Source of the DNA: Acidobacteriota bacterium
GTDB lineage: Bacteria > Acidobacteriota > Thermoanaerobaculia > Multivoradales > J023
Reading direction: 5' to 3'
Assembly: GCA_039194425.1 (NCBI GenBank)
Contig: JBCCVZ010000018.1
Coordinates: forward strand, 68,164-132,163
Length of the DNA stretch: 64,000 nucleotides
Shown: piece by piece, positions 40,965-60,695 of the stretch
Layout: each line of letters starts with the position of its first letter
Numbering within the stretch: position 1 is the stretch's first letter
The notes under the pieces: generated by a model
Databases searched by the model: none
Seen by the model: the letters and a program-made list of their open reading frames with translations, nothing else
What the model was told of the DNA's origin: nothing
Translations under genes and position numbers: made by a program

Positions 40965-43811
40965 TCAGCGCTTCTGCCGCTGTGCGACGGCCGCCATGGC
41001 GCGTTTCGCGGTCGAGCGGACGACCGGGCTGGCCGAGGGATTCTGGGCGATCTTGTCGAGAATCTGGCGCCCCTGGCGGCTGCGCGTCATGTTGCCGATG
41101 TATTTGTTGGCGAATTCTTGCGTGCACTTCGGGTGATTCAGCGCCGCCACCAACGCCTGCTGGCGCGTGAAGAGCTCGGGACGGCGCAAGATCGTCTGCA
41201 AGACGGCCGAGTTGATCTCGCGCAGGCGCAGCACGCGCTCGACGTGCATCAGGCCGATGTGGCGTAGCGTCTCGCTGGCGACCCGCGGATCGGGGTGGGT
41301 GACGAACCAGTAGATGTAGCGCGCCGCGCCGGCGAGGCGCCGCTGAATGGTCAGTGGCAGGCTCTTGATGCCGGCGGGCGGCTTCGACGGCCCCTTGTCG
41401 CCCGACTCGCGGCGCGCCGCCTCGAGCGTCCGGCGCAGGCGCTCGAAGTAGTCGACCTTCAGGCCCTTCGACTGGGCGCGCGCCAGGAAGCGGCGCAAGA
41501 TGTCGTCGAAACGCTCAAAGTAGCCGGTCTCGACCAGGAAGCTGAAGCCGAGGAGCAGCATGATCAGCTTGGTGACGGCGTCGAACTCTTCGCGCGTGCG
41601 GAAGCCTTCGACCGCCTGCTCGATACGCGAGCGGGTGCAGTCGAAGAAGATCTTGCGCGCGTCCTCGCCTTCCTTGCGGCTCATGCGCTCGCCGATGGCG
41701 TAGATGCTGGTGATCGGAATCGACGGATGCGACACGACCTGCCACATCGCCTGCGGGCTGAGCTGCAGCGCCGCGTGATTGCGCACTTCCTGCTCGCCGT
41801 GCCCGAGCACCAGGCAGCGCCAGACGATCTGGAAGTCTTGCTCCGAAGGCCTGAGCCCGCTGCCTTCGAAGCGCTCGGCGAGCGCCGCCGCATCGGGCCG
41901 CTCGGTCGACGCCAGCAGCTCGCGCACGATGTGGAAGCGGCGATGCTCCACCGGCGGCGCCAGCAACACGTCGACAAAGCTGGTGTCGTCGGCACGCTTG
42001 TGGCCGCGGATCGAGAACAGGTCGTCGAGCAAGACGAGGTCGGCGGCCTCCCAGAGCTTCTTCAGCAGCTTGGCGTGGCGCTCCTCGCCGGGGTTGGTCT
42101 GGAGATACGCCAGGACGGCCTTCTTGTGATTGAGCAGCACTTCCGTGAGCGCGGTCTCGATGTCGAGCTCGTCGGCGCGCAGCAGCTGATCGATGGCGCG
42201 CAACACTTCGTCGTCGATTTCGGCGGTCGGCGCCGACGGCTCCTCGGCCCCGCGCGCCAGGCTGAGACAGCGATGCTCGAGCTTCTCGAGGATGACCACG
42301 GAGCGCGAGCGACGACGCGACGCGGCGCGCGCCATCGCCTCGAGACGACGCGAAACGACGAGCGGCGCCTTGGCGTCGGCCACCTGCTCACGCAGCCGCA
42401 GCCACACCGACCCCTCTTCCTTGCGCATCCTGGCGGCCGCCTCGGCGAGCTGGGCGAAGAAGCCCTGCGACCAGTTGTAGTCGATCGAGGCGTAGCTCTG
42501 GCAGAACGAGTTGAGCACCGAGTACATCTCGTCGACGGAGCCCGACAGCGCGTCGGCGGCCTGGATGTCGAGGCCCGACGCGGGGCCCTGGAGAAGGGCC
42601 AGCGCGAGCGAGGTCTGGCGCTGCATCCGCGCGACGGCGTCGTCGAGATCCGACAGGTCGCCGTCGGCGCGCGACGACGGCAGCTTGCACGAGTAGACGG
42701 GCTCGCGCTCCCAGCGCCCCTTGAAGCTGAAATGCGGCCGCAGACGCTCGTCGATGCGCTCGAGCAGGCGCCGCGTGATGGTCAGCTCGCCGGCGTCGGT
42801 ATTGCGCTTCTGCAGGTCGACGACGAAGCGCAGGTCGCTGGCCTGGATCTCCTCGATCGGCAGCTGGAAGACGATCACGGCGTCGTGCGCCGAGGCCCGC
42901 AGGTCGATGTCGCGGCCGAGCGGGTTCTGCTCCGGGTCGAGATTGAAGACCGGCAGGTTGTGCAGCACCTTGAGGCCGGTCATGATCGCGTGGTCGTAGC
43001 TGCGCCGGGCCCAGAACATCACCAGGCCGCCCTGGGAGCCCCACGCGAAGACTTCTCCACCGTAAGTCGCCGCGGTCGATTTCACCAGCTCGAGAAATCC
43101 GGCGGCTAGGCGTTGCAGCAACGCCGAGTCGTCGCCGAGCTCTTCGAGCAGCTTGTCCCAGCGCGCGATCTCAATCGACAGGAACGAGACCTCGTACGCC
43201 TTGCCGGGCTCCATCTTCTTCTCGAAGCGGGTCTGGCCCACCAGCGTCGGGCGCGGCTTGGCCTCGGCCGGTGCCGTCGGCGCCGCGGCGTCGCCCTGCA
43301 GCAGCTGGCGCAGCTCTGCGCCGAGCGTTGCCTCGAGCGACGCAGCGGTATCGAACTCGTGGTAGGCGAAGCGATTCTTCTCCGGCGAATCGAAGCGCCG
43401 ATGAAAGTGGCCGACCCGATCGAAGGCGCGGCTGTCGATCGCGGCCAGGCTCGTCGGCAAGCGCATGCAGCGCAGGAAGACGCAGCGCGGGCGGCGCAGA
43501 GTCTTCCAGTAGTTGTACGCGATCTCGAGATCACGCTCGGTGCACAGGCTCTCGCCTTTGGCGTCCGGCGCGTCGAAGCCCAGCCAGGACAGAGCGACGA
43601 AGAAGTCCTCCGGCTGCACCGGCAGATTGCGGAACGCGACGGTCTCGGGCAGGCTGGTGACCGGCGCCGCGGCCTGGTGCCAGTCGACGATCTCGATCGC
43701 CTCCGCGACACCGCTTCGCACGGATTCGTTGAGCGCAGCGACCACATTCGCCACCGCCTCGCGTTCGGCGGCGAGATCACTCGGAGCTGCCAGGTACAGT
43801 CGCATGGGCAT
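40965..43811 (-). CDS. large multidomain protein: N-terminal DUF4062-like domain, degenerate class-III nucleotide-cyclase-like core, C-terminal alpha-helical (HEAT/ARM-like) repeats
   Basis: Start taken at MPMRLYLAAPSDLAAEREAV (43811). The track's 1180-aa version extends into the divergent CRTAC1 gene. DUF4062 hallmarks are LYLAAPSDLAAEREAV..AL then DFFVALSWLGF...ESLCTERDLEIAY. The cyclase-like segment FLSIEIARW...YGGEVFAWGSQGGLVMFW lacks both metal-binding Asp residues. There is no P-loop. Confidence 0.5.
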   Translation of the reverse strand: MPMRLYLAAPSDLAAEREAVANVVAALNESVRSGVAEAIEIVDWHQAAAPVTSLPETVAFRNLPVQPEDFFVALSWLGFDAPDAKGESLCTERDLEIAYNYWKTLRRPRCVFLRCMRLPTSLAAIDSRAFDRVGHFHRRFDSPEKNRFAYHEFDTAASLEATLGAELRQLLQGDAAAPTAPAEAKPRPTLVGQTRFEKKMEPGKAYEVSFLSIEIARWDKLLEELGDDSALLQRLAAGFLELVKSTAATYGGEVFAWGSQGGLVMFWARRSYDHAIMTGLKVLHNLPVFNLDPEQNPLGRDIDLRASAHDAVIVFQLPIEEIQASDLRFVVDLQKRNTDAGELTITRRLLERIDERLRPHFSFKGRWEREPVYSCKLPSSRADGDLSDLDDAVARMQRQTSLALALLQGPASGLDIQAADALSGSVDEMYSVLNSFCQSYASIDYNWSQGFFAQLAEAAARMRKEEGSVWLRLREQVADAKAPLVVSRRLEAMARAASRRRSRSVVILEKLEHRCLSLARGAEEPSAPTAEIDDEVLRAIDQLLRADELDIETALTEVLLNHKKAVLAYLQTNPGEERHAKLLKKLWEAADLVLLDDLFSIRGHKRADDTSFVDVLLAPPVEHRRFHIVRELLASTERPDAAALAERFEGSGLRPSEQDFQIVWRCLVLGHGEQEVRNHAALQLSPQAMWQVVSHPSIPITSIYAIGERMSRKEGEDARKIFFDCTRSRIEQAVEGFRTREEFDAVTKLIMLLLGFSFLVETGYFERFDDILRRFLARAQSKGLKVDYFERLRRTLEAARRESGDKGPSKPPAGIKSLPLTIQRRLAGAARYIYWFVTHPDPRVASETLRHIGLMHVERVLRLREINSAVLQTILRRPELFTRQQALVAALNHPKCTQEFANKYIGNMTRSRQGRQILDKIAQNPSASPVVRSTAKRAMAAVAQRQKR

Positions 43812-43952
43812 CCTTCGGAGCGGATCGGACGTCGAGAGAAAACGTCGGTGCGAGAGTTCGAGCGAGGGGCTGGCGGGAACGTCCCGCGCGCTGACCGGGA
43901 GTGGCAGATCGTAGCATGCTGCCGGATCCATCGTCTCGGCTACAATCGCGCC

Positions 43953-45788
43953 ATGCGCGCCACGCACTTCGCCCCCAGATCCTTCCTTCGTTCGTCGCTC
44001 ACGACCCTTTCGAGCCCGCACCGAACGGTCGCTTTCTGCCTGTCCATGGGATCTCTGCTCGGCCTCGGCGGAGCTCCGACGAGCCTCGCCGAGCAGACCG
44101 CTCCGTGGTTGCCCGACGTGGCGGCGGAGGTCGGTCTCCGCGTCGACCACGCCAACGGCGCCGACGGCCGGCTGCGCTTCCCGGAGATGATGTCGACCGG
44201 CGCCGCGCTCTTCGACGCCGACGGCGACGGCGACCTCGACGTCTTCCTCACCCAGGGAGACGGTCCCGACCGTCTCTTCCTCAATCGCCTCGAGCGCGGC
44301 TCGCTGCGCTTCGAGGAGGCACCGCGCGCCGGATTCGCCAGCCTCGGCGACGGCGCGGCGGGTGAGGCCATGGGCGTTGCCGCGGGCGATCTCGACGGCG
44401 ACGGAGACGTCGACCTCTTCGTCGCCAACCTCGAGACCGACCACCTGTGGCGCAATCGCGGAGACGGCACCTTTGACGAGGTCGGTGCTCGCTCCGGCGT
44501 CGCGCACGACGGATGGAGCATCGGCGCCACCGTCTTCGACGCCGACCGCGACGGCGCTCTTGATCTCTTCGTCATCGACTACGTCGTCTACGACGCGTCG
44601 ATCGAGTGCTACGACGACTCGAGCCGGCGCAACTACTGCGGCCCCGATGCCTACCCGCCGGCGCCCAACCGCCTGCTGCGCGGACGCGGCGACGGCACCT
44701 TCGAAGACACCTCCGCCGCCGCCGGTCTGGCGACGCCCCCGGGACCGAGCCTGGGGGTCGTCGCCGAGGACCTCGACGACGACGGCCGGCTCGACCTCTA
44801 CGTCGCCAACGACGGGCGCGCCAACCGCCTGTGGCTGGCCGGCGACGACGGCACCTTTCGCGACGAGGCGCTGCTCGCCGGCGCCGCGGTGAATCTAGCC
44901 GGTGCCGCCGAGGCGGGCATGGGTATCGCCGTCGGCGACGTCGACGCGAACGGCACGTTCGACCTGCTGGTCACGCATCTCGACGGCGAAACGCACACTC
45001 TCTACGCGGGCGCCGGCGGTGGCCTGTTCGAAGATCGCACCGTCGCCTGGGGGCTGGCCGCAGCGTCGATGCCGTGGACCTCGTTCGGCACCGGCTTCTT
45101 CGATCTCGAGAACGACGGCGACCTCGATCTCTTCGTCGCCAGCGGCGCGGTCAAGCTGCCGACCCGACTGGCCGACGGCGCCGCGCCGAGCCTCGGCCAG
45201 CCGAATCAGCTCTACCGCAACGACGGCCGTCGCTTCGCCGAAGTCTCCGAGCGGGCGGGAGCGAGCTTCGCGCAGCGCGAGACCTCGCGCGCCGCCGCCT
45301 TCGGCGACGTCGACAACGACGGCGACGTCGACATTCTGCTGGCCAACAATGGCGGACCGATCCGTCTGCTGCGCAACGACGCCGCCAACGGCTCGCGCTG
45401 GATCGGTCTGCGCGTCGTCGAACCGGCGCCGCGGGGCGGCGACGGCGCGGTGCGCGACGCTCTCGGCGCGCGGGTCGAGGTGGCGCTCGACCAGGCCGGC
45501 ACCCGCACGGTGCTGCGCCGCGTCGCCACCGACGGCAGCTACGCCGCCGCCAGCGACCCACGCGTCCTCGTCGGCCTCGGGGACCGCGCGGGATCGACCA
45601 GCGGCGCGATCCGCGTCCGCTGGCCCGACGGCAGCTGGGAGCGCTTCCCGCCGGCACCGGCCGGACGCTACACGACCCTGCGCCGGGGTGCCGGCAGCGC
45701 CGCAACCGACGGCTCCGAAGCGCCCGAGGCGGACGCGGAGCCACGAGGTGAGGCACAAAGCCAGCGCGGCGACGGGGAGCAGCGATGA
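43953..45788 (+). CDS. CRTAC1-family protein (FG-GAP/VCBS repeats + ASPIC/UnbV C-terminal domain)
   Basis: ATG at 43953 (MRATHFAP) with a signal peptide. The repeated FG-GAP motifs are FDADGDGDLDVF, AAGDLDGDGDVDLFVAN, VFDADRDGALDLFV, AEDLDDDGRLDLYVAN and FGDVDNDGDVDILLAN. The C-terminal UnbV_ASPIC-like region is GARVEVALDQAGTRTVLRRVATDGSYAAASDPRVLVGLG...IRVRWPDGSWERF. Confidence 0.8.
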   Translation: MRATHFAPRSFLRSSLTTLSSPHRTVAFCLSMGSLLGLGGAPTSLAEQTAPWLPDVAAEVGLRVDHANGADGRLRFPEMMSTGAALFDADGDGDLDVFLTQGDGPDRLFLNRLERGSLRFEEAPRAGFASLGDGAAGEAMGVAAGDLDGDGDVDLFVANLETDHLWRNRGDGTFDEVGARSGVAHDGWSIGATVFDADRDGALDLFVIDYVVYDASIECYDDSSRRNYCGPDAYPPAPNRLLRGRGDGTFEDTSAAAGLATPPGPSLGVVAEDLDDDGRLDLYVANDGRANRLWLAGDDGTFRDEALLAGAAVNLAGAAEAGMGIAVGDVDANGTFDLLVTHLDGETHTLYAGAGGGLFEDRTVAWGLAAASMPWTSFGTGFFDLENDGDLDLFVASGAVKLPTRLADGAAPSLGQPNQLYRNDGRRFAEVSERAGASFAQRETSRAAAFGDVDNDGDVDILLANNGGPIRLLRNDAANGSRWIGLRVVEPAPRGGDGAVRDALGARVEVALDQAGTRTVLRRVATDGSYAAASDPRVLVGLGDRAGSTSGAIRVRWPDGSWERFPPAPAGRYTTLRRGAGSAATDGSEAPEADAEPRGEAQSQRGDGEQR

Positions 45789-47152
45789 AGCACCTCTGGC
45801 TGCTCGCGGCGCTCGTCTGGGGCTGCGTTTCGCTCGCGGCAGGCGCCCAGGAAATGCAGTCCCCGCCGCCCGGTCGACAGCCGCAGCTCGAGCCGGTGCC
45901 GCGCCCGAGCCTCGAGGCAGTCGAGCCACTGGTCGCCGAAGGCCTCGAGGCCGACCATGCGGCGGTCGATGCCCTCCTTGCGCAGGCCCGCGAGCCCGAG
46001 GGCATCGACGGCCTCGAGCTCGCCGACGCCTTCGTCGAGCTCGCGCTGTCGTACCATGCCCATGCCTTCTACGAGTCTGCGCTCGCCGGCTATCGCAATG
46101 CCGCGCGCCTGCTGCCCGACGACCCGCGCTGGCCTCATGCGATCGGCGTCGCCGAGGCGACGCGAAGCAACCTGGAGGCCGCCACCACCGCCTTTGAGAA
46201 CGCGCTGAGGCTCGATCCGTCGTCGCCGGCGACTCGCTTGCACCTGGCCGACGCGCACCTCGCCGCCGGGCGGCTCGACGACGCCGACGCGCTGGCCCGC
46301 TCGGTGCTCGACGAGCTTCCCGACCAGCCGGCGGCGCTCGACCTGGTCGGCCGCATCGCGCTCGAGCGACGCGAGTTCCAGACCGCCGCCGACGCCTTCG
46401 AGGCCGCGCTCGTGAAGCTGCCGGACGCCAACCGCCTGCACTACCCGCTCGCTCTCGCCTACCGTGGCCTCGGCGACCTCGACGCGGCCCGTCGACACCT
46501 CGAGCTGCGCGGAGGCGTCGGGGTGCGTCCTCCGGATCCGCTCCTCGCCGCGATCGAAGAGCGTGAGAGCGGTGTCCGGGCGATGATCCTGCGCGGCCGA
46601 CGCGCCTTCCGCTACGCGCGCTACGCCGACGCCGCCGCGGCCTTCGCCCGAGCCGTCGACGCCGATCCGACGCATCTCGCGGCACGGGTGAACCTCGGCG
46701 CGTCCCTGATCCAGGCCGGCGATCTCGACGCGGGAGAGGCCGCGCTGCGTGCGGCGCTCGAGCTCGATCCCGACAACGGCGAGACCTGGCACAACCTGGG
46801 CCGAGTCGCCCTGATGCGCGGCAAGCCGACGCGCGCCGCCAATGCTCTACGCCGCGCCGTCGCGCTCGATGGTGACGACTTCGAGAGCCGGCGCCAGCTC
46901 GCCGTCGCGCTGCAGCATCTCGGCGACAAGGCGGGCGCCGCCACGCAGCTCCAGGCCGTCGTTGGCGGCGCACCCCACGACGAGAACGCCCACCTGGCTC
47001 TGGCTCAGCTGCTCCTCGACCTGGGTCGCAACGGCGCCGCCCTTACCGCTCTGCGGCAGGCGGCCGCTGATCTGCCCAACTCGGAGCGCATCGCGGCCGC
47101 CCTCTCGGGCCTCGAGGCCGCGCTCGCCGAGTCCTCGACCGATCCTCAGTGA
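45785..47152 (+). CDS. TPR-repeat protein (secreted)
   Basis: Signal peptide MKHLWLLAALVWGCVSLAAGA, then multiple TPR-like A/L/R-rich repeats. Its start overlaps the CRTAC1 stop in an ATGA, so the two form a pair. Confidence 0.8.
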   Translation: MKHLWLLAALVWGCVSLAAGAQEMQSPPPGRQPQLEPVPRPSLEAVEPLVAEGLEADHAAVDALLAQAREPEGIDGLELADAFVELALSYHAHAFYESALAGYRNAARLLPDDPRWPHAIGVAEATRSNLEAATTAFENALRLDPSSPATRLHLADAHLAAGRLDDADALARSVLDELPDQPAALDLVGRIALERREFQTAADAFEAALVKLPDANRLHYPLALAYRGLGDLDAARRHLELRGGVGVRPPDPLLAAIEERESGVRAMILRGRRAFRYARYADAAAAFARAVDADPTHLAARVNLGASLIQAGDLDAGEAALRAALELDPDNGETWHNLGRVALMRGKPTRAANALRRAVALDGDDFESRRQLAVALQHLGDKAGAATQLQAVVGGAPHDENAHLALAQLLLDLGRNGAALTALRQAAADLPNSERIAAALSGLEAALAESSTDPQ

Positions 47153-47342: not shown

Positions 47343-48995
47343 ATGGACCGCCGTCTGCTCTGCCTCCTCACCCTTCTCGCCTGCCTGCCCGCGCTCGCCG
47401 CGACGCCGCCCCAGATCACGCCCGCCGCCGACATGACCCGGGTCGACTGGACGATCTCCGAGCGACACGCCGGCGCCACCCTGACCGTCGCGGCGCCCGA
47501 CGGCCGCGTGTTCAGCCAGGTCGCGGCACCGGGCGAGACACTCGCATTCGTGCCCGCCGCGCTCGATTCGCAGCTGCCGGACGGGCGCTACGACTGGCAG
47601 GTCGTCCTCGCCCCGGTGCTCGATGCCGACCAGCAGCGAGACCTCGCCGCCGCGCGCCATCAGCCGGGCCGAGTCCACGCCGTCCAGACCCGAGCGGTGA
47701 GCGGCACCTTCGTGCTCGCTGGCGGCCTCGTCGTCTGGGACGCCGACGCGCTCGAGCCGACCGCGGGCAGCCCCGTTCCCGGCCCGCGGCCCAAGGACGG
47801 AGCGCCGGCGGCCAAGCAGTTCATTCCCGAAGATCTGATCGTCGAAGGCAGCACCTGCATCGGCGTCGACTGTGTCGACGGTGAGACCTTCGGCTTCGAC
47901 ACGCTGCGCCTCGACGAGTCGAATCTCCGTCTGCACTTCGACGACACCAGCACCACAGGCTTCTTTCCGCGCAATGATTGGCGCATCGTCGCCAACGACA
48001 CCGCCAACGGCGGCGGCGAGTTCTGGGCGCTCGAAGACGCCACCGCCAGCGACCAGCCGCTGCGCGTCACCGCCGGCGCCGGCCCCAACGCGCTCTACGT
48101 CGACGCCGCGGGCGATGTCGGCCTCGGCACGGCCACGCCGGTGCTCGAGCTGCACATCGCCGACGGCGACACACCCGGCCTGCGCCTCGAGCAGGACACC
48201 TCGGCCGGCCTCACCGCTCAGAGCTGGGACCTCGCCGGCGACGAGACGAGCCTCTTCGTGCGCGACGTGACCAACGCCTCGTCGCGCCCGCTGCAGATCG
48301 AGGCCGCTGCCGAGGACGACTCAGTCATCGTCGCGAGCGGTCGAGTCGGCCTGTTCACCGACAGCCCCACGGCGGCGCTGCATGTGCGGCGGAGCGACGA
48401 GACCGCGAAGATCCTGGTCGAGGAAACAAACGGTACGGCATCGGCGTCCGCTCGCACTCTGCTCCAGCTCACCAACAACGGCAAGCTCGGCCTCCGAATG
48501 GCCGACACCAACTCCGGCAATACCTGGAAGCTGGAGAACGATCCCAATGCCTTCCTCATCACGCTCGACGGGAGCGGCGCCACCGAATTCGGTCTCACGA
48601 ACTCGGGCAGTGTAGTCATCACCGGCACACTGACCGAGGGTTCCGATATCGCCCGCAAGGACAGTTTCCAGCCGATCGATCCGGGCCAGATCCTCTCCCA
48701 GGTCACGGCCCTACCACTCTCGACCTGGAGCTACATCGACGACCCGTCGGGCGCTCGCCACATCGGACCGATGGCGCAGGACTTCTTCGCGGCGTTCGGC
48801 CTCGGCGGCACCGCCACGGGAATCCAGCCGCGCAATCTGAGCGCGGTGGCGCTCGCGGCGATCCAGGGACTGCACGCCGAGCTCGAGGCCAAGGAGCGAC
48901 GGATCGAAGAGCTCGAGGCCGGGCACAGCCAGCTGGAGGAGCTCGAGCGACGGCTGAGGCAGCTGGAAGCTCACAAGATCACGCCGCAGGACTAG
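47343..48995 (+). CDS. secreted fibre-like protein with C-terminal intramolecular-chaperone (peptidase S74 / endosialidase-chaperone-like) autoproteolytic domain, paralog A
   Basis: Signal peptide MDRRLLCLLTLLACLPALAA. The conserved core FGFDTLRLDESNLRLHFDDTS...NDWRIVAN is shared with paralogs B and C. The C-terminus GTLTEGSDIARKDSFQPIDPGQILSQVTALPLSTWSYIDD...HIGPMAQDFFAAFGLGG...LSAVALAAIQGLHAELEAKERRIEELE carries an S-D-x3-K putative cleavage dyad and a coiled coil. Confidence 0.7.
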   Translation: MDRRLLCLLTLLACLPALAATPPQITPAADMTRVDWTISERHAGATLTVAAPDGRVFSQVAAPGETLAFVPAALDSQLPDGRYDWQVVLAPVLDADQQRDLAAARHQPGRVHAVQTRAVSGTFVLAGGLVVWDADALEPTAGSPVPGPRPKDGAPAAKQFIPEDLIVEGSTCIGVDCVDGETFGFDTLRLDESNLRLHFDDTSTTGFFPRNDWRIVANDTANGGGEFWALEDATASDQPLRVTAGAGPNALYVDAAGDVGLGTATPVLELHIADGDTPGLRLEQDTSAGLTAQSWDLAGDETSLFVRDVTNASSRPLQIEAAAEDDSVIVASGRVGLFTDSPTAALHVRRSDETAKILVEETNGTASASARTLLQLTNNGKLGLRMADTNSGNTWKLENDPNAFLITLDGSGATEFGLTNSGSVVITGTLTEGSDIARKDSFQPIDPGQILSQVTALPLSTWSYIDDPSGARHIGPMAQDFFAAFGLGGTATGIQPRNLSAVALAAIQGLHAELEAKERRIEELEAGHSQLEELERRLRQLEAHKITPQD

Positions 48996-49562
48996 CCAAA
49001 GACGGTGAGCCATTCTGCCTCCTGAGCCCGCTGACTCAGTGAATCAGATAACGAGTCAAGGGCTAAAGCTCTATTTCCACGGAGATCGAGTCTAGAAGCG
49101 AGAAAAACCAGAGATCTTCTCTCGACTTGGCCTTCTTCGGACTCCCAAGGCCACCGCGGCTTCTCGACAGGAACCGTATGGGCTTGACGCGGCGACGATC
49201 TCCGCCTATGATCTGAGGGTCTCTTCCCTTCCTCTTGTCCCATCAGCCAGTTGATACGCAACCAACGGACTCCTTCCGCTCGGTGCTGGTGCATCTCGAC
49301 ACTCTCGAGACACTGGCGATCTCGCAAGATCCCTGAACCGTACGCCTGGAGATCCGACGCTTTCAACGCCGACTGCTGCGACAGACCGCCGTCGGCCCGA
49401 ACCGGACCGAACTGCTTGATCTCTTCTCCGGCCCACTTCCCGGCCGGGATCCTTCAGAGGGGTACCCAACTCGTCCGCCGGCGCCGTGCCCCGGACGAAC
49501 TGAGTACCGTGGGGCCTCCCACCCCACTCACCCATCTCTCCATCACTGGAGGTCAGTCACCA

Positions 49563-51254
49563 ATGCGTTCCTACCTCACCAGCAAGCCCGCGATTCTCAT
49601 CGCTCTTCTCGCCCTCGTCCTCTCCGGCAGCTCCTTCGCCGCCACCCAGCCGAGCCTCGACATGCTCGGTGGCAGCAGCCAGCTCGTGTGGTACGTCAAC
49701 GGCCCGGCCGACGGCGCGACCCTCGTCATCTCAGTGCCCGACGGCCGCATGCTCGAGGCCGTCGCCGGCCCCGGCGAGCCGCTCTCGTTCTCGCCGTTCG
49801 ATCTCGACGCCGCCCTGCCCGACGGTGTCTACACCTGGGAAATCGTCGTCACGCCGAAGCTGAGCTCGCAGGAGCGCCAGCTGGCCGAGGCCGAGCGCGC
49901 CGCGGGCCTCAGCCCGGCAGTGCAGCTCGACCCCGCCTCGGGCGCGTTCTCGATCCTCGGCGGTTCTATCGTCTGGGACGACGCCACCATCGTCGAGGGT
50001 GACTCCGACGGCGGCTCGTCAGTCGGTGGCAAGGTCGCCGCCGGCGCCGAGGGCCTCGAGGGTCTGCCCACCAAGCAGTTCATCAGCAGCGACCTCACGG
50101 TCCACTTCAGCGCTTGCATCGGCGGTGACTGCGCGACGTCCGAGAGCTACGGTAGCGACACGCTCCGCCTGAAGGAAAACAACCTGCGCATCCACTTCGA
50201 CGACACCAGCAACTCGGCGTCGTTCCCGAACAACGACTGGCGCATCACCGCTAACAGCTCGGACAACGGCGCCGCCAGCTTCCTTTCGATTCAGGACGCC
50301 ACCGCGGGTACCACGCCCTTCTACGTCGGCGCCGGCGCCGGCAACAACGCTCTCTACGTCGAGAACAACACGGGCGACATCGGCGTCGGCACCGCGGCGC
50401 CGGTGGTCGAGGTCCATGTCGCCGACGGCGACACGCCGACGATGCGCCTTGAGCAGAACGGCTCCTCCGGCTTCGCGACGCAGACCTGGGACCTCGCCGG
50501 CAACGAGACGAACTTCTTCGTCCGCAACGTGACCAACGGCTCGCGCCTGCCGTTCCGCATTTTCCCGACCTCTGAAGACGACGCGGTGGTTCTCCGCAAC
50601 AGCGGCGTCGGCATCTTCACCGACAACCCGTCGGCCTCGCTGCACATTCGTCGCACTGACGAAACGGCGAAGATCTTTGTCGAAGAAGCGAACGGCACGG
50701 CCAGCGCCAACGCTCGGACCCTGATGCAGCTCACCAACAACGGCAAGCTCGACTTCCGACTGTCCGACACCAACTCGGGCAACACCTGGAAGTTCGAGAA
50801 CGATCCGAACGCCTTCCTCATTTCGCTCGACGGCAGCGGCGCGACAGAGTTCGGCCTCACCAACGCAGGCAGCCTCGTGATCACTGGCACGCTCACCGAA
50901 GGGTCCGACGTCAACACGAAGGAGAACTTCGAAGCGATCGAGCCGGCGCAGATTCTCGCCGAGGTCCTCGAGCTGCCGATCACCACCTGGAGCTACATCA
51001 ACGACGAGCCGACCGTGCGCCACATCGGTCCGATGGCCCAGGACTTCCACGCCGCCTTCGGCTTCGGCGGCACGGAGACCGGCATTCAGCCGCGCAACCT
51101 CAGCGCCGTCGCACTGGCCGCGATCCAGGGCCTTGACGCCGACGTCAAGGCGACGCTGACCGCGGAGCTTGAGAAGAAGCAGCAGAAGATCGACGAGCTC
51201 GAGTCTCGTCTGGCTGCTCTCGAGGCGCTGATCCAGGCGCAGGCCGCTCAGTAA
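49563..51254 (+). CDS. secreted fibre-like protein with C-terminal S74-like chaperone domain, paralog B
   Basis: ATG at 49563 preceded by GGAGG, with signal peptide MRSYLTSKPAILIALLALVLSGSSFAA. It shares the core of paralogs A and C. The C-terminus GTLTEGSDVNTKENFEAIEP...HIGPMAQDFHAAFGFGGTETGIQPRNLSAVALAAIQGL is followed by a coiled coil. Confidence 0.7.
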   Translation: MRSYLTSKPAILIALLALVLSGSSFAATQPSLDMLGGSSQLVWYVNGPADGATLVISVPDGRMLEAVAGPGEPLSFSPFDLDAALPDGVYTWEIVVTPKLSSQERQLAEAERAAGLSPAVQLDPASGAFSILGGSIVWDDATIVEGDSDGGSSVGGKVAAGAEGLEGLPTKQFISSDLTVHFSACIGGDCATSESYGSDTLRLKENNLRIHFDDTSNSASFPNNDWRITANSSDNGAASFLSIQDATAGTTPFYVGAGAGNNALYVENNTGDIGVGTAAPVVEVHVADGDTPTMRLEQNGSSGFATQTWDLAGNETNFFVRNVTNGSRLPFRIFPTSEDDAVVLRNSGVGIFTDNPSASLHIRRTDETAKIFVEEANGTASANARTLMQLTNNGKLDFRLSDTNSGNTWKFENDPNAFLISLDGSGATEFGLTNAGSLVITGTLTEGSDVNTKENFEAIEPAQILAEVLELPITTWSYINDEPTVRHIGPMAQDFHAAFGFGGTETGIQPRNLSAVALAAIQGLDADVKATLTAELEKKQQKIDELESRLAALEALIQAQAAQ

Positions 51255-51265
51255 GTAAGTCTCCC

Positions 51266-51310
51266 GAGGTGGCCGGGCGACCGGCCACCTCACCCCTCGC
51301 TTATTTTTTG
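51266..51310 (+). terminator. rho-independent terminator after paralog B
   Basis: An 11-bp perfect stem GAGGTGGCCGG-gcga-CCGGCCACCTC is followed by ...CGCTTATTTTTTGG. Confidence 0.6.
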
Positions 51311-51504
51311 GCCTTTTATATCGAAAAATTGAAACGTCAGTATGAGTTAGGCGAAATCCCTGAAAGATCGCGGGCTCAAGTCATCTTGCCGCCCGTTCTT
51401 CACCGAATTCCCTGGCGATCGATCGGTCGTGAGACCATGCAATGAAGCCACCGTTCAACTGATCGAAGATCCATCGTTCGAACCACTACCTCAGGAGGAA
51501 CTCG

Positions 51505-53166
51505 ATGCGTGTTACCCGTTGGCCCCTCTGGCTTGCTCTCGCTCTCAGCCTGGCACTTCTCGTCCCCGGATTCGCCGCGGCGGAAGACGTCGTCAAACTC
51601 GACGCGAACGGCAGAACCATCTACTGGATCCCGCTCGTCGAGCATGTGCAGCAGAATCTGACCCTCACCGGTCCCGCCGGGTTCTGCGACGAGCGCACCT
51701 ACGACGCCTACGAAACGCCGAAGCTCGACACCTCGGAGCTCCGTGACGGCGCCTACAAGTGGCGGTTGGTCTTGGCGCCCGAGATCTCGCGCGAAGTGAA
51801 AGAGATGATCGAGCATGCCCGCGCCAAGGACATCAAGAATCTCGACGACCTCCTGCTCGCCGACGGCCTGGTCAAGGAGCAGATCGCTTCGGGAGTCTTC
51901 CATATTCGGAATGGTGAGGTGATCCTTCCCGATCCGAACACCACGGAAGATCGCCTGGTCGACGCACCCGACAAGCTCGACATCGTTGATCAGCTGGCCA
52001 ACGTGCCGATGAAGCAAGTGATCTCGGGCGATCTCACCGTGTACAACAGCATCTGCGTCGGCTTCGACTGCCTGGCCAACGAGAGCTTCGGCTCGGACAC
52101 CTTCCGCCTCAAGGAGAACAATCTCCGCATCCACTTCCAGGACACCAGCACGGCGGCCTCGTTCCCGACCACCGACTGGCGCCTGGTCGCCAACTCGAAC
52201 CTGAACGGCGGCGCCTCGAAGTTCTCGATCGACGACGCGTCGGCCGGGCGCTCGGTGTTCACCGTCGAGGCCAACGCGCCGTCGAACGCGCTCTACGTCG
52301 ACGACGGCGGCCGAGTCGGCGTCGGCACCAGCACGCCGGTGACCGAGATCCACACCACCAACGGCGACAGCCCGACGCTGCGCCTCGAGCAAAACGGCAG
52401 CGCCGGCTTCGCGCCGCAGACCTGGGACGTCGCCGGCAACGAGACGAACTTCTTCATCCGCGACGCCACCAACGGCTCGGCGCTGCCTTTCCGTATCCGT
52501 CCCGGCGCCGACTCGAACGCGCTCTTCATTGACACCGACAACGACATCGGCATGGGCACGGCGTCCCCGGACGCCAGCCTCGAGGTCGAGCGCACCGACG
52601 CGCAAATCCTGGTCAACGATCAGAACGGGTCGGCGAGCGGCGGCGCGACGCCGCGTACGCTGCTCCGGCTGAGCAACCTCGGCAAGCTCGACTTCCGCCT
52701 CGAGGACCGCAACAGCGGCAACGAGTGGAAGTTCGAGAACGATCCGGGCGGCTTCTTCATCTCGCTCGACGGCAGCGGCGCGACCGAGTTCGCGCTCGCC
52801 AACAACGGCAACCTGACGATCGACGGCACGCTCACCGAGAACTCCGACGTGACGCGCAAGGAAGGCTTCCAGCCGGTCGACCCGAGCCAGATTCTGGCCG
52901 AAGTGGTCGAGCTGCCGATCACCACCTGGGCCTACATCGACGACCCGACGGTCCGCCACATCGGTCCGATGGCCCAGGACTTCCACACCATGTTCGGCTT
53001 CGGTGGCACCGACAAGGGCATCCAGACCCGCAACCTCAGCTCGGTCGCCCTCGCTGCCATCCAGGGCCTGAACGAGGAGCTCGAGGCCAAGGACCAGCGC
53101 ATCGACGAGCTCGAGCAGCGCCTGGCGGCCCTCGAGGCCCTGCTGCTGCAGGCGGCGGCCGACTGA
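51505..53166 (+). CDS. secreted fibre-like protein with C-terminal S74-like chaperone domain, paralog C
   Basis: RBS AGGAGG, signal peptide MRVTRWPLWLALALSLALLVPGFAAA. It shares the core of paralogs A and B. The C-terminus GTLTENSDVTRKEGFQPVDP...HIGPMAQDFHTMFGFGG...LSSVALAAIQGLNEELEAKDQRIDELE is conserved. Confidence 0.7.
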   Translation: MRVTRWPLWLALALSLALLVPGFAAAEDVVKLDANGRTIYWIPLVEHVQQNLTLTGPAGFCDERTYDAYETPKLDTSELRDGAYKWRLVLAPEISREVKEMIEHARAKDIKNLDDLLLADGLVKEQIASGVFHIRNGEVILPDPNTTEDRLVDAPDKLDIVDQLANVPMKQVISGDLTVYNSICVGFDCLANESFGSDTFRLKENNLRIHFQDTSTAASFPTTDWRLVANSNLNGGASKFSIDDASAGRSVFTVEANAPSNALYVDDGGRVGVGTSTPVTEIHTTNGDSPTLRLEQNGSAGFAPQTWDVAGNETNFFIRDATNGSALPFRIRPGADSNALFIDTDNDIGMGTASPDASLEVERTDAQILVNDQNGSASGGATPRTLLRLSNLGKLDFRLEDRNSGNEWKFENDPGGFFISLDGSGATEFALANNGNLTIDGTLTENSDVTRKEGFQPVDPSQILAEVVELPITTWAYIDDPTVRHIGPMAQDFHTMFGFGGTDKGIQTRNLSSVALAAIQGLNEELEAKDQRIDELEQRLAALEALLLQAAAD

Positions 53167-53198
53167 TCGTCGCCCGCACCGACTGAACGTTCGAGGAG

Positions 53199-53230
53199 CC
53201 CGGTCGCCGATGGCGGTGACCGGGCTTTTT
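53199..53230 (+). terminator. rho-independent terminator candidate after paralog C
   Basis: Stem CCCGGTCGCC-gatg-GCGGTGACCGGG (imperfect) followed by CTTTTT. Confidence 0.5.
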
Positions 53231-53286: not shown

Positions 53287-55374
53287 ATGCGCCCGCCCCG
53301 CCCTCTGAGCTCCTGCACGTCGCCGCCGCTCGTCGTCGGTTGCCTGGTCGTGCTCCTGGCCTGCGGCTGTGGCGGCGACGACGAAGCCGCGAACGGGCGC
53401 GAGAACCAGGCCGCCGGCGCCGAGGCCCCGCGGGCCGCTCCACCGACCGCTCCACCGACCGGTCAGCCCGCGACGCCGACCGTGCGTACCACCTCGCCCG
53501 CGGTGATCGACCTGGGACGACGCCTGCGGCTGCGCGGCGTGCCGGACGACCCGACGGTCTCGATCGAGGTGTGGCGCATCGACGAGGACGAGCGCGCCGT
53601 CCTCTTCGAGCACCCGCCGCGGCAGCTGCGCTTCGGACCGTTCACCGGCCGCGGATGCAGCCTGCGCTTCGGCCTGACGATCCGGCCGGAGCACTGGCAG
53701 CAGACGGACGGTGTCGGCTTTCGCGTGGTTCTGGAAGCCGCGGTGCCCGAGCCGACCGGGCTCGAGACGACCCAACCCTCCGGCGCCGAGGAGCACCTGG
53801 TCTTCGAGGAAGCGCTGGTGCCGAGCGCCTACGACGAACCGCGCTGGTTCGATCGAGAAGTTCAGCTGCCACCGCTCGATCAGACGACGGTGCGGCTCGA
53901 GACGACTGTCGGTGCGGCCGGCGATCCGTCGTACGACCATGCCGCGTGGAGCAGCCCGCACCTGGTGTGCGACGCGGTGCCGATCGAGCGCACGGTGGAT
54001 CCTCGGCCGTCGATCCTTCTCGTGTCGATCGACACGCTGCGCCGTGACCACCTCGGCGTCTACGGCTACGCGCGCGACACGAGCCCGGCGATCGACCGCC
54101 TGGCGACGCACAGCGTGGTCTTCGACCGCGCCCTGAGCAATGCCCCCTTCACCCTGCCGACCCACGCGACGATGCTCACCGGCCTCGACGCGGCGACCCA
54201 TCGCGCCGGCTTCGAGCATCCGGAAGCACCACTCGCCGACGTCACCAGTCTCGCCGAGCGGCTGCGCGCCGCCGGCTATCGCACCGTCGCCTTGAGCGCC
54301 GGCGGCTTGATGAGCCGGCGCTACGGCCTCGACCGCGGATTTGACGAATGGCACGAGCTGCAGCGCGCCAACCTGCGCTCGACCCTACCGACCGTGCTCG
54401 ACGCCCTGCTCCATCCGGCCGACGGCGCGGCGTGCGGCCCGGTCTTCATCCTGGTCCACACCTACGACGTCCACGGCCCGTACCAGCAGCCCGTCGGCCA
54501 CCGGACGTTCCGCACGCCAGCGGGACTCGGCGGGGCGGGACACGACGGCCCGAGCCCAAGAGATCGTGCGACCGACGAAGAGACCTGGCAACGCGTGCAG
54601 GCAATGCGCTACCACCGCTACCTGCTGCTCGATCGCTTCGCCGGGCTCACCGACGTGATCGACGCCTACGACTCCGGGATCCACTTCGTCGACAGCCAGC
54701 TCGAGCTCCTCGAGCGCTTCCTCGAGCGCGCCGACTTGGCCGACACGACGGTGCGCATCGTCACCTCGGACCACGGCGAAAGTCTCTTTGACCGCGGCCG
54801 CTACCTGGGCCACAGCTACAGCTTCGACGACGCCGAGCTGCGCATCCCGCTGATCGTCCACGTCCCGGGCCAACTGCCGGCACGCCGCGACGAGCCGGTC
54901 GGCCTGCTCGATTTGGCGCCGACGATCCTCCGCCTGGCCGAGCTCGAGGTGCCGGCGACGCTCCCGGGGATCGACCTGCTGGCGCCCCCCGCCGAGCGCG
55001 CCGGCGAACGTCAGCTCGCGGGCGGCTCGCCGCACCTCGGCTCGCTCTTCGTGCGCGACGCGTCGTGGCTGGTGGCGACGCCGACGCGCGACGGCTGGCG
55101 CGGTGAGGCGCGCAAGCTCTTCGGTGCGACCAGCCAACAGTTCGACCACGTCTGGCGCATCGCCCCCGTGAGCACCGACGGCTCACTCGCGCATGCTCCG
55201 CGCGCCGAGCGTTCCTCCGTCGGCGAAGAAGTCCCGCGCGCCGTGCGGGATCTGGTGCGCCAGCTGCATCCCCGCGAGACGCCCGGCGCCCTGACGGTGG
55301 ACGGCCCCGCCGACGGAATCGAACGCGATCCGGAGGCCGAAGCGGACCTGCGCGCGCTAGGCTATCTCCAATGA
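53287..55374 (+). CDS. sulfatase-like (alkaline-phosphatase superfamily) lipoprotein, Thr-nucleophile variant, with about 230-aa N-terminal extension
   Basis: The track start 53254 is a TTG. The ATG is at 53287 (MRPPRP...) and is followed by a lipobox VVLLACGCGG. The sulfatase N-terminal motif is ILLVSIDTLRRDHLGVYGY. The signature region reads FTLPTHATMLTG, i.e. T-x-P-x-H in place of C-x-P-x-R. Confidence 0.7.
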   Translation: MRPPRPLSSCTSPPLVVGCLVVLLACGCGGDDEAANGRENQAAGAEAPRAAPPTAPPTGQPATPTVRTTSPAVIDLGRRLRLRGVPDDPTVSIEVWRIDEDERAVLFEHPPRQLRFGPFTGRGCSLRFGLTIRPEHWQQTDGVGFRVVLEAAVPEPTGLETTQPSGAEEHLVFEEALVPSAYDEPRWFDREVQLPPLDQTTVRLETTVGAAGDPSYDHAAWSSPHLVCDAVPIERTVDPRPSILLVSIDTLRRDHLGVYGYARDTSPAIDRLATHSVVFDRALSNAPFTLPTHATMLTGLDAATHRAGFEHPEAPLADVTSLAERLRAAGYRTVALSAGGLMSRRYGLDRGFDEWHELQRANLRSTLPTVLDALLHPADGAACGPVFILVHTYDVHGPYQQPVGHRTFRTPAGLGGAGHDGPSPRDRATDEETWQRVQAMRYHRYLLLDRFAGLTDVIDAYDSGIHFVDSQLELLERFLERADLADTTVRIVTSDHGESLFDRGRYLGHSYSFDDAELRIPLIVHVPGQLPARRDEPVGLLDLAPTILRLAELEVPATLPGIDLLAPPAERAGERQLAGGSPHLGSLFVRDASWLVATPTRDGWRGEARKLFGATSQQFDHVWRIAPVSTDGSLAHAPRAERSSVGEEVPRAVRDLVRQLHPRETPGALTVDGPADGIERDPEAEADLRALGYLQ

Positions 55375-56822
55375 ACAAGCTCACGTCCTTCTTTGCGCCG
55401 GCCGGCGCCCTCGTCCTCACGGCGCTCGGCCTCGGCCTGCTCACCACGGGCTGCGGCGGCTCACCCGACCGCCCCAACGTGCTCCTGATCTCGGTCGACA
55501 CGCTGCGCGCCGATCGGCTCGGCACCTACGGCTATGACCGCGGTACCAGCCCAGCCATCGACGCTCTCGGCGCCGAGGCCGCGGTCTTCGACCGTGCGAT
55601 CAGCCAGTCGCCGTGGACCACTCCGTCGCACATGTCGCTCTTCACCTCGCTGCATCCGTCGAGCCACGGCGTGAACCAGGGCTGGTTCGAGTTCCTCGCC
55701 TTCAGCCGCGGCGAGGCCGAGTACCGCGTGCTGCCGGAAGACGTGCCGACGCTGCCGCAGCTGCTCTCCGACGCCGGCTACCGCACGCGCGCGCTCACCG
55801 GCGGCGGCACCGTCGGCGCGCAGCTCGGATTCGGCCGCGGCTTCGAGGAGTATCGCCAGGACGCGCGCAAGCTGCGTCCCGAGCATTGGAGCCAGCTCGT
55901 CGACTGGCTGGAGGAGGACGACGAGCGCCCCTTCTTCCTCTTCTTCCACACCTTCGAGGTGCATGCGCCCTACACCCATGTCGACGACGCACGCGGTGTG
56001 ATCGGCGACGAAGCGGCCGATCGCCTCGAGCACTTCTACGCCGAGAACCCGGAGCTGAGCGAGAACGAGGCGCGCAAGGACCTCGAGCGCGCTGGTCTCT
56101 TCCGCGTCGAGGTCACCTCGCGTCTCTACGACGGCGGTATCCGCTTCACCGACCGCTTTCTCGGCGACTTTTTCGACCAGCTCCGGCAGCGGGACCTGTG
56201 GGACGACACGATCGTGATCTTCCTCAGCGATCACGGCGAAGAGTTCGCGGACCATCGCCCGAACAAGATCTACAACGTGCACTGCGACGCGCTGTGGGAC
56301 GTGTTCATCCACGTGCCGCTGATCCTGCGCGTCCCCGGGCGGTACGACGACGGCCGCCGGATCGACGGCCAGGTGAGCCTGGTCGATGTCGCCCCGACCT
56401 TGCTCGAGCTACTCGACCTGCCGATCCCGCCGACCATGCGCGGCGACAGCCTGGTGTCACGCCTCGACGGCGCACCGGCCGAGGCGCGCAGACCGGTGTT
56501 CAGCGAATCGCCCTGCCTCGGCCCGGAGTGGAAGGCGCTCCGCACCGAGAGCTACAAGTACATCGTCGGTTTCGAGGCGCCGCGGGGCGAACGCACCGGC
56601 ATTCCGGGCCCGCCGCTGCACGAAATGCTCTACGACCTCGAGACCGACCCGCGCGAGCAGGTCGACCTCTCGACTAGCGACATCGAGCTCCGCGACCGCA
56701 TGCGCCGTCGGCTTGTCCGCTTCTTTACCGAGGAGGCGACGCCGGTCGGCGAGGACGCGGCCTCGATCGAGATGGACGAAGAGCTCGAAGAGCAGCTGCG
56801 CTCGCTCGGCTACATCGACTGA
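55371..56822 (+). CDS. sulfatase-like (alkaline-phosphatase superfamily) lipoprotein, Thr-nucleophile variant
   Basis: Its start overlaps the upstream stop (ATGA), and the lipobox is LLTTGCGG. The sulfatase N-terminal motif is VLLISVDTLRADRLGTYGYDRGTSPAID. The signature is SPWTTPSHMSLFTS (TTPSH versus the canonical CTPSR). A metal-binding pair appears in SDHGEEF. Confidence 0.75.
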   Translation: MNKLTSFFAPAGALVLTALGLGLLTTGCGGSPDRPNVLLISVDTLRADRLGTYGYDRGTSPAIDALGAEAAVFDRAISQSPWTTPSHMSLFTSLHPSSHGVNQGWFEFLAFSRGEAEYRVLPEDVPTLPQLLSDAGYRTRALTGGGTVGAQLGFGRGFEEYRQDARKLRPEHWSQLVDWLEEDDERPFFLFFHTFEVHAPYTHVDDARGVIGDEAADRLEHFYAENPELSENEARKDLERAGLFRVEVTSRLYDGGIRFTDRFLGDFFDQLRQRDLWDDTIVIFLSDHGEEFADHRPNKIYNVHCDALWDVFIHVPLILRVPGRYDDGRRIDGQVSLVDVAPTLLELLDLPIPPTMRGDSLVSRLDGAPAEARRPVFSESPCLGPEWKALRTESYKYIVGFEAPRGERTGIPGPPLHEMLYDLETDPREQVDLSTSDIELRDRMRRRLVRFFTEEATPVGEDAASIEMDEELEEQLRSLGYID

Positions 56823-59287: not shown

Positions 59288-60615
59288 GGCGTGGCCTCGC
59301 TCCGTGTCTCCGCCGCGAGCACCCGCTCGACGGCGGCGTGTGCGAGGTCGATGGTGCCACTGATCGTGCGGTCGGACGGGTAGAGCTGGCTCGACTCGAC
59401 CAGGTAGAGACCGCGGAACGGCGTCTCGTGGCCCGGCACGCGCTCGGCAAAGCCGGCCGGGCACACGACCTGCGCGAACGGATCGCGCGACACCGCCGCG
59501 GAGAGCACGTCGTCGTCGGCGAGCGCCGGCTGGATCAGGCGCAGCGCCTCGACGCATTCGGCGATCAAGGAGTCGTCGTCGCGCCGGTAGCGAGGATCCT
59601 CGCGCGGCAAGTAGTAGGGCACGTAGACGATGCTCGAGCCGTCGGGCGTGATCTCGGGATTCAGGTTGGTGTACTCGATCACCCCGTTGAACGAGATCCG
59701 CGGGTCGTCGACATTCGTCCAGAAGTTCTCGCTGATCGGCCGGCGCAGGCGCAGCACGACGCACACCACGGCGAGGAACTCGTGGGTCGCCAGCTCGTCG
59801 AGCCAGGGATCGTCGACATGCTCCAGGAGGCGATGGAACACCGGCAGCGGCACGGCCGAGAGCATGTGGTCGAACCGGCGCGGCGACGAGTCACCGGCGA
59901 GCGACACTCCGACGGCGCGCCGGTCCTCGATCAGAATCCGCTCGGCCGGCGTTTCGCGGTGGACGGTGACGTCGAGCGCGCCGAGCCGCGCTTCGAGCGC
60001 ATCGACCAAGGTCTGCGTGCCGCCGACCAGGTGGCCGAGTCGTTCCTTGTGGAAGAGCGTCTTGCGCGAGCGGGCGACGCGGTGGATGCGATGCCAGACC
60101 CAGGCGGCCGAGATCTGGTCGTGGACGCCGGGAAACTTGCGGCTGAGCAGCGGGTACCACGTGGCGCGGTAGGCGCTCTCGCCCATCATCGAGATCAGCC
60201 ACGGCTCCGCGCGCCGCGCGTCGAGAGGCCGCCAATCTTCGATCCACGAGGCATAGAGAGCCGACAGCCCGTAGCGGATGCGGCCGAGCAGCGAGGTGCC
60301 GCCGAATCGCAGCAGATCGAGGCTGCTCGAGAACGGATAGAGCCGACCGTGAAAGTAGTAGCCCATGCGCGTCGTGCGCCAGCGCAAGGACTCGCTCAGG
60401 TCGAGCTCTTCGAGCAGATCGAAATAGCCTTGGTCGACGCCACACAGAAAATGGTAGTAGCGCTCGATGGTGACGTCGTCGAGCTCGAACGAACGCGCCA
60501 GCCCACCAAGCTCCGGCGCCGCCTCGAACAGGTGCACGGAGAGCCCGGAGCGCGCCAGACGAAGTGCGGCGGCCAGGCCCGCCGGGCCCGCGCCGAGAAT
60601 GCCGATGGATGCCAT
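59284..60615 (-). CDS. FAD-dependent oxidoreductase (amine-oxidase / PPOX / UDP-galactopyranose-mutase-like Rossmann fold)
   Basis: Start at the internal Met MASIGILGAGPAGLAAALRLARSGLSVHLFEAAPELGGLARSF (GxGxxG + EA...GG dinucleotide motif). Its stop is coupled to the YfhO-like start. Confidence 0.7.
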   Translation of the reverse strand: MASIGILGAGPAGLAAALRLARSGLSVHLFEAAPELGGLARSFELDDVTIERYYHFLCGVDQGYFDLLEELDLSESLRWRTTRMGYYFHGRLYPFSSSLDLLRFGGTSLLGRIRYGLSALYASWIEDWRPLDARRAEPWLISMMGESAYRATWYPLLSRKFPGVHDQISAAWVWHRIHRVARSRKTLFHKERLGHLVGGTQTLVDALEARLGALDVTVHRETPAERILIEDRRAVGVSLAGDSSPRRFDHMLSAVPLPVFHRLLEHVDDPWLDELATHEFLAVVCVVLRLRRPISENFWTNVDDPRISFNGVIEYTNLNPEITPDGSSIVYVPYYLPREDPRYRRDDDSLIAECVEALRLIQPALADDDVLSAAVSRDPFAQVVCPAGFAERVPGHETPFRGLYLVESSQLYPSDRTISGTIDLAHAAVERVLAAETRSEATP

Positions 60616-60695
60616 GGATAGGTTGCGGAACGGTGTGTCGCGTCGCGGCAAGATATCGCACCCCTCTCACATTCCCAAGCCGATATGCTCGACGC

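Follow-up and report, generated by a model that had tools for sequence, protein, structure and literature searches.

A 64,000-nt stretch of an Acidobacteriota genome (assembly GCA_039194425.1, contig JBCCVZ010000018.1; hereafter the window, with positions counted from its first letter) carries three tandem genes, A, B and C, whose products each end in a Peptidase_S74 domain. We consider it likely, with a probability of about 0.75, that these are chromosomal bacterial genes for Sec-exported homotrimeric fibres of the same kind as the S74-class MAT fibres of Bdellovibrio, and we propose that they act as surface or extracellular binding fibres together with an ASPIC propeller and a TPR protein. 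The S74-class MATs, described in 2024, are the closest known kind. An earlier sequence-only reading of this DNA had suggested host-encoded, secreted, self-processing trimeric fibres, and that idea is supported by our analysis because the proteins have signal peptides and two invariant Cys, lie in no phage context and match the repeats of a Bdellovibrio MAT (E 3.6e-11). The domain assignment itself is not new, since the three proteins already bear the NCBI name 'tail fiber domain-containing protein' and have a precomputed PF13884 match; among the database proteins listed here under P-numbers, P0001 is identical to B, and P0002 and P0003 match A and C in length. What is new is a large family with a conserved 170-aa core that has no Pfam model, and with arrays of up to eight copies; further new points are an FG-GAP/ASPIC propeller gene and a TPR gene close to the fibres at ~40% of loci and, in Rhodobacterales, a neighbouring type II secretion cluster and an Ig-like N-domain encoded by its own gene. 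Our literature search returned no paper on S74 proteins of Acidobacteria and none on a link between ASPIC proteins and fibres, and the supplementary tables of Caulton 2024 (PMC10769870) do not mention Acidobacteria.

Profile searches confirmed the S74 domain that had been proposed at the C-terminus of all three proteins. PF13884 (Peptidase_S74) scored 33.9, 39.4 and 32.5 bits for A, B and C, against a gathering score of 22 bits (E 4e-8 to 7e-10), and the same family is precomputed for nearly all of the 120 homologues listed. Position 1 of the profile falls on the Ser of SDIARK in A, SDVNTK in B and SDVTRK in C, so that the candidate Ser/Lys dyad consists of Ser434/Lys439, Ser448/Lys453 and Ser447/Lys452, respectively. 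The dyad is kept in the homologues: across an alignment of 50 homologues with 40-57% identity, Ser and Lys (448 and 453 in B numbering) are invariant in 50/50, the position after the Ser is D, S or N, and GPMAQDF is nearly invariant. Because the two dyad residues are invariant while neighbouring residues vary, selection on catalysis is indicated. The modelled C-terminus of B superposes on the ICA domain of MyRF (PDB 7dc3), which places the ICA fold in the predicted structure. As judged from these alignments, the S74 module of A, B and C is genuine and appears to be under selection.

All three proteins start with a hydrophobic, signal-peptide-like leader ending in A-x-A, as had been described, and in A it spans approximately residues 1-19. 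Behind it, A is laid out as an Ig-like N-domain, a linker, a two-module fibre core and the S74/ICA part from Ser434. B follows the same plan, with an Ig/FN3-like beta-sandwich, a disordered linker rich in Gly, Ser and Ala (residues 141-174), the conserved core, a second module (residues 346-447) that is related to the first at ~29% identity, and the S74 domain with a long coiled-coil helix (residues 448-563). Two invariant Cys (C185 and C190) and the signature RLKENNLRIxFDDTS...NDW mark the core of B, and the core motifs quoted in the sequence-only reading are present in the alignment of A, B and C. The core also contains the first copy of a loop motif, G-x-V/I-G-x-G-T-x-x-P-x-x-x-L/V-H-V, which occurs once per module and twice per protein (B residues 272-287 and 347-362); the core query likewise matches most family members twice. 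Pfam gave no match for the core, the N-domain or an alternative C-terminal module found in some relatives, and no NCBIfam family matched A, B or C. The AF2 model of B has a mean pLDDT of 76.8 and exceeds 90 in the N-domain (30-138) and at the C-terminus. Searched against the PDB, the family profile matched the fibre repeats of Bdellovibrio Bd2133 (8ond, E 3.6e-11), 8ojn and 8oml (E 1e-4 to 5e-4), 8on4, and MyRF (E 1e-4), and Foldseek gave a weak match to the T5 tail tip 7zn2.

The Bdellovibrio MATs are signal-peptide-bearing trimeric beta-helix fibres, 13 of 21 of which end in S74 with SDxxxK; Bd3182 self-cleaves at the Ser of this motif, cleavage is lost in S782A, and the same loop motif was found in MyRF (Caulton 2024, PMC10769870). 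Like the S74-class MATs such as Bd3182, the products of A, B and C are chromosomally encoded, non-phage proteins with a signal peptide, a C-terminal S74 with SDxxxK and a beta-rich, predicted trimeric fibre bearing the V-G-x-G/N-T-x-x-P-x-x-x-L loop motif, and they share with MATs the presence of many paralogues per genome as well as variants in which S74 is swapped for another C-terminal module, as in the 'NS74' MATs. Unlike MATs, they are ~550 aa rather than ~1,000 aa long, have their own conserved 170-aa core and form tight tandem mosaic arrays, their N-domain can be a separate gene, they are linked to ASPIC and TPR genes and, in Rhodobacterales, to a type II secretion system (T2SS) cluster, and their host is not known as a predator. 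With phage S74 proteins (K1F endosialidase and the T5 L-shaped tail fibre pb1) they share the Pfam family, the dyad at the start of the domain, the G-x-x-A-Q-D/E motif and a helical coiled coil, C-terminal to a beta-rich fibre; the phage proteins, however, have no signal peptide, attach to the virion by their N-terminus and lie in phage genomes. Eukaryotic MyRF differs in role, being a membrane-bound transcription factor in which cleavage frees a DNA-binding domain.

The family is large and widespread. When the 171-aa core was run with phmmer against 1.84 billion representatives of clusters at 50% identity, 1,276 proteins matched at E<=1e-30 and 3,179 at the looser E<=1e-3, mostly with lengths of 300-650 aa, and a set with one genome per GTDB species gave at least 592 matches. 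Hosts among the matches listed include Acidobacteriota (Thermoanaerobaculia, Vicinamibacteria, Holophagales), Gamma- and Betaproteobacteria (Dokdonella, Wenzhouxiangella, Shewanella maritima, Acidovorax), Rhodobacterales, Rhodothermota, Planctomycetota and others. Signal-peptide-like N-termini were present in 96 of 107 long homologues and in most short ones, among which a Rhodobacterales form of ~400 aa leads from the signal peptide directly into the core, without an N-domain. Tandem arrays of at least two copies occur at 29 of 83 loci (loci collected in the analysis carry L-numbers), including those of Thalassococcus, with 8 copies, and of L001 and Primorskyibacter (L076), with at least 6-7. 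At L084, two of the five array members (2068-3684 and 9886-11481) replace S74 with another helical C-terminal module (VPDYVFEDDY.LMGLDEL..FVATEKHLPNIP...; also ...HLPNIP...LLEK.EELTLYT), which has neither the Ser/Lys dyad nor a Pfam model. Separately, four giant predicted proteins (P0121-P0124; 1,701-4,928 aa) contain several fibre-core copies each. The three that were scanned, P0121-P0123, carry S74, with two to three separate S74 domains in P0122 and P0123, along with Peptidase_M10, dockerin, PKD or Calx-beta domains; the giants may result from gene calling that joined the members of tandem arrays, or they may be genuine mosaics of giant size.

Comparison of the three copies revealed a mosaic. 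Overall amino-acid identity is 57% between A and B and 48% between A and C, and by region the values among the three are 19-35% for the N-domain, 11-14% for the linker, 49-62% for the core, 55-81% for the second module and 62-73% for S74; the N-domain of C is the most divergent, at ~20% identity to those of A and B. The claim of the sequence-only reading that B and C have long stretches of DNA in common was not borne out: the longest exact match between them is 33 nt (25 nt for A-B, 19 nt for A-C), and repeat families in the DNA of the three genes are 66-81% identical. When each region was searched against all fibre ORFs (open reading frames) collected in the analysis, A, B and C proved to be each other's best matches in the second module and S74 (59-82%). 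The central cores find their best matches in other genomes, that of C at 81% in L024 and those of A and B at 63-68% in L085/L086, which exceeds the 49-62% among the three themselves; over all arrays, the best match of a core lay within its own locus for 14 of 91 cores. A recent local duplication is thereby rejected for the central core, and the array is old, because the best match of each core sits in another genome. Judging from these regional identities, the copies have apparently become more alike in their 3' halves through homogenisation within the genome, or else they have exchanged their 5' halves. The segmental mosaic supports the earlier idea of exchange between copies; the route through long identical tracts that went with it does not stand.

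Conserved neighbours accompany the fibres. In the window, the fibre genes are preceded on the same strand by genes for an exported ASPIC beta-propeller and an exported TPR protein, which we regard as probable partner genes. An ASPIC-TPR pair also flanks the fibre arrays of L001 (at least 7 fibres), L002, L014, L021, L028, L029, L033, L060 and L079, and at L086 a single 1,134-aa fusion of the two lies immediately upstream of 4 fibres. Pfam confirmed the ASPIC architecture in neighbours at L023, L036, L055, L056, L059, L060 (two copies) and L068, and detected FG-GAP repeats only in the neighbour at L033. Across the 50 loci whose flanking sequence reaches at least 4 kb in each direction, an ASPIC homologue lies within 3.5 kb of a fibre core in 20 and within 10 kb in 22, and a TPR/Sel1 homologue lies within 3.5 kb of the fibres in 17.

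A second conserved arrangement emerged in Rhodobacterales, where ten loci (L085 at 863-12386, L013, L026, L046, L048, L053, L059, L063, L075 and L080) share a common gene order. They span at least five genera (Tateyamaria, Jannaschia, Ruegeria, Antarctobacter and Mameliella) plus a Paracoccaceae metagenome-assembled genome. One strand carries gspG-H-I-J-K-L, with a weak assignment for GspL, and the diverging strand carries a prepilin peptidase, two Sel1 genes, a 137-aa ORF, one or more short fibres and a protein with ArsP_1, FG-GAP and ASPIC domains. The 137-aa secreted protein (L085 7532-7945) is homologous to the Ig-like N-domain of the long fibres (hhalign probability 98.9%, E 2.2e-17), which makes the N-domain a separable module; gene fission or fusion accounts for the stand-alone gene and the fused domain. 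A single copy of the 137-aa gene precedes the 8 fibre genes in Thalassococcus (L025, L027). The gene pulA adjoins the pul secretion genes, and the Rhodobacterales layout recalls that arrangement; by this analogy, the layout suggests that the fibre may be exported by type II secretion. The L085 contig also carries Rep3 and ParAB and may be a plasmid.

We propose the following course for the maturation of these fibres. The signal peptide would take each chain across the inner membrane through Sec, after which the ~110-aa S74/ICA domain and its long coiled-coil helix would bring three chains together. Their contact would nucleate folding of the upstream intertwined, beta-rich fibre, built of two related modules of ~170 aa that each bear the G-x-V-G-x-G-T-x-x-P loop. 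The Ser/Lys dyad would then cut the chain just before the Ser and free a 12-13-kDa fragment, leaving a stable mature trimer of ~42 kDa per chain with Ig-like N-domains on flexible linkers. Located at the surface or outside the cell, this trimer would adhere to a ligand as a binding fibre, probably together with the ASPIC propeller and the TPR protein.

Other explanations of the three genes were weighed against this one. S74 is typical of phage fibres and also known in fibres of extracellular contractile injection systems (eCIS; PMC12923769); with weak PHROG tail-fibre matches (phrog_1980, E ~1e-9) and a slight GC dip to 0.63 at 50-52 kb, A, B and C could belong to a prophage, tailocin, eCIS or gene-transfer agent that is encoded at another site, and be attached to its particle in the cytoplasm as tail fibres or tailspikes. 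The signal peptides, present on all three and on nearly all homologues, make a poor fit to such assembly. In agreement with the sequence-only reading, Pfam scans of the called genes of the 64-kb window found no capsid, terminase, integrase, sheath or baseplate gene, nor any eCIS structural gene among those scanned, and returned metabolic, regulatory and envelope genes instead. A scan of 2.9 million viral contigs yielded 37 matching loci, all of which match the C-terminal third only (query residues >=346, mostly 407/448-555) and mostly the S74 part; the core and the N-domain were found in none of the 37, with the core motif WD[VIL]AGNE among the patterns used. The GC content at third codon positions of A, B and C (0.86-0.90) matches that of the surrounding host genes, and the conserved neighbours are exported bacterial proteins. 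We rejected a prophage or eCIS origin because the proteins carry signal peptides, the window lacks phage genes and the core did not turn up in the viral contigs scanned, and hold assembly onto a particle to be largely refuted and very improbable. A role as secreted glycan-degrading enzymes that resemble tailspike depolymerases and attack sulfated polysaccharides jointly with the two downstream sulfatases is somewhat less remote, though still improbable. Two sulfatase genes do lie directly downstream on the same strand, endosialidases occur among phage S74 proteins, and sulfatases are found near fibres also in L035, L051, L065 and L070. Pfam, NCBIfam and PDB profile searches, however, detected no catalytic domain, the mature fibre part is small (~270 aa in two repeat modules), and a strong terminator separates C from the sulfatases. 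The sulfatase partnership is also weak in number, with sulfatases near fibres in ~5 of 84 loci versus 20-31 for ASPIC/TPR.

A further alternative holds that S74 serves as an uncleaved trimerisation or folding tag only, or that A, B and C have a structural role in the periplasm instead of forming fibres at the surface. The two L084 members whose C-terminal module lacks the dyad imply that cleavage is not essential to the fold, and no outer-membrane export route is encoded nearby; yet Ser and Lys are invariant in all 50 aligned sequences amid variable neighbouring residues, and all S74 proteins tested so far cleave (Caulton 2024, PMC10769870). We judge this alternative unlikely, if less so than the two before it. 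Several observations nevertheless weigh against our preferred reading of exported, MAT-like trimeric fibres with ASPIC and TPR partners. The monomer model of B has a pTM of 0.39, and its pLDDT is just 50-80 across the fibre part. The N-domain is the most variable part here (19-35% between paralogues), whereas that of MATs is invariant, and it is an ordinary Ig/FN3-like domain with clear PDB homologues, whereas the MAT N-domain (~130 aa, beta-rich) was reported without one. The window contains no T2SS genes, and no outer-membrane route for a folded trimer was seen there. As a reverse control, we took the 80 metagenomic proteins that best matched the ASPIC protein of the window (34-47% identity): a fibre was nearby in 0 of the 28 with at least 5 kb downstream, and a TPR match in just 9 of the 80. 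ASPIC is a very large family, and part of its adjacency to fibres could be due to chance. The fibre-linked ASPICs are nonetheless 50-54% identical to the window ASPIC, closer than any of those 80 relatives, and for 9 of the 11 the nearest neighbour is another fibre-linked ASPIC despite being outnumbered 116 to 11, a pattern in the sequences that points to a dedicated subgroup.

The features of the locus are collected in Table 1.

Table 1. Coordinates of the fibre genes, their domains, terminators and probable partner genes in the window.
Feature	Position	Strand	Basis and remarks
Fibre paralogue A	47343..48995	+	550 aa; ORF, alignment, Pfam S74 residues 434-485
A: S74 intramolecular chaperone + coiled coil	48642..48992	+	Predicted cut G433/S434 (SDIARK), giving 117 aa, 12.8 kDa
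Fibre paralogue B	49563..51254	+	563 aa; ORF, Pfam; protein used for AF2 model
B: N-terminal Ig/FN3-like beta-sandwich, residues 28-140	49644..49982	+	
B: conserved core, residues 175-345	50085..50597	+	Top conservation in family alignment
B: S74/ICA + coiled coil	50904..51251	+	Predicted cut G447/S448 (SDVNTK), giving 116 aa, 12.5 kDa
Terminator-like hairpin after B	51266..51309	+	11-bp GC-rich stem, T6 run ~12 nt downstream; folding free energy (dG) -27.9 kcal/mol, z -5.2
Fibre paralogue C	51505..53166	+	553 aa; ORF, Pfam, alignment
C: S74/ICA + coiled coil	52843..53163	+	Predicted cut N446/S447 (SDVTRK), giving 107 aa, 11.7 kDa
Intrinsic terminator after C	53197..53230	+	GC-rich stem then directly TTTTT; dG -36.3 kcal/mol, z -3.3
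Probable partner: exported FG-GAP_3 x5 + UnbV_ASPIC beta-propeller, CRTAC1-like	43953..45788	+	Pfam; start codon inferred
Probable partner: exported TPR protein	45785..47152	+	Pfam; start overlaps ASPIC stop by 4 nt (ATGA)

The three tandem ORFs lie where the sequence-only reading had placed them, all on the forward strand, and its expression signals were recovered as well. AGGAG, GGAGG or AGGAGG precedes the start codons of A, B and C, giving each gene its own ribosome-binding site, and a GC-rich hairpin with a T run follows B and C, with none after A. These two terminators were identified by reading and folding the sequence; a promoter/terminator consensus scan gave no forward-strand terminators. 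The A-B spacer (48996-49562) is unusually long, at 567 nt, and holds a sigma-70-like site at 49184-49212 (10/12 matches); its only ORFs are short, lie on the opposite strand and are probably spurious, and an Rfam scan of the whole window, this spacer included, matched no RNA element. In the B-C spacer, an AT-rich stretch at 51290-51400 (TTATTTTTTGGCCTTTTATATCGAAAAATTGAAAC...), in a genome otherwise of ~70% GC, may be a promoter or regulatory region for C.

Divergent from the ASPIC gene, an ORF of ~950-990 aa on the reverse strand (40965-43931) gave no Pfam or PHROG match, and its translation probably begins at a point beyond the first ATG. Downstream of the fibres, the region 53287-63849 is a cell-envelope or glycan neighbourhood, with two sulfatase genes that overlap by 4 nt (55371-55374) and are translationally coupled, a YfhO-like membrane protein (56810-59260, reverse strand), an amine oxidase and two GT2 glycosyltransferases. 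Further away, a 1,158-aa protein (26745-30221, reverse strand) has a C-terminal M23 peptidase domain as its sole Pfam match, and a 283-aa protein (24534-25385, forward strand) has a ricin-B lectin domain; the ORFs at 23222-24535, 25429-26661 and 30239-31342 gave no significant Pfam match, the first of them with sub-threshold matches only.

More tentatively, and as a possibility that we rate as rather less likely than not, the fibres may be the visible part of an undescribed, widespread extracytoplasmic system that combines an S74-matured trimeric fibre, an Ig-like adaptor, an ASPIC propeller and a TPR/Sel1 protein. The adaptor would be fused to the fibre in Acidobacteriota and be encoded by the separate 137-aa gene in Rhodobacterales, and the integrin-like FG-GAP/ASPIC propeller could be soluble, TPR-fused or membrane-anchored through an ArsP_1-type domain. 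The Rhodobacterales cassette, head-to-head with gspG-L and sharing an operon with the prepilin peptidase, would make the folded trimer a dedicated T2SS cargo, as pullulanase is for the pul genes, and the 2-8 mosaic paralogues would provide alternative binding specificities.

To our knowledge, secreted non-phage fibres matured by a phage-type self-cleaving chaperone have so far been studied in the predator Bdellovibrio only. The architecture seen at the A/B/C locus is related to that of the Bdellovibrio fibres but distinct from it; it is common among bacteria from the environment, such as Acidobacteriota, Rhodobacterales of marine origin and several Gamma- and Betaproteobacteria, and comes with conserved partner genes. 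Cultured hosts, including Jannaschia seohaensis DSM 25227, Mameliella alba, Ruegeria marina, Acidovorax facilis DSM 649 and Dokdonella immobilis, allow direct tests. If the partnership is real, a subgroup of the ASPIC/CRTAC1-like propellers, a large and enigmatic family in bacteria, would gain its first assigned role, and the partnership would also suggest type II secretion as an export route for folded trimeric fibres.

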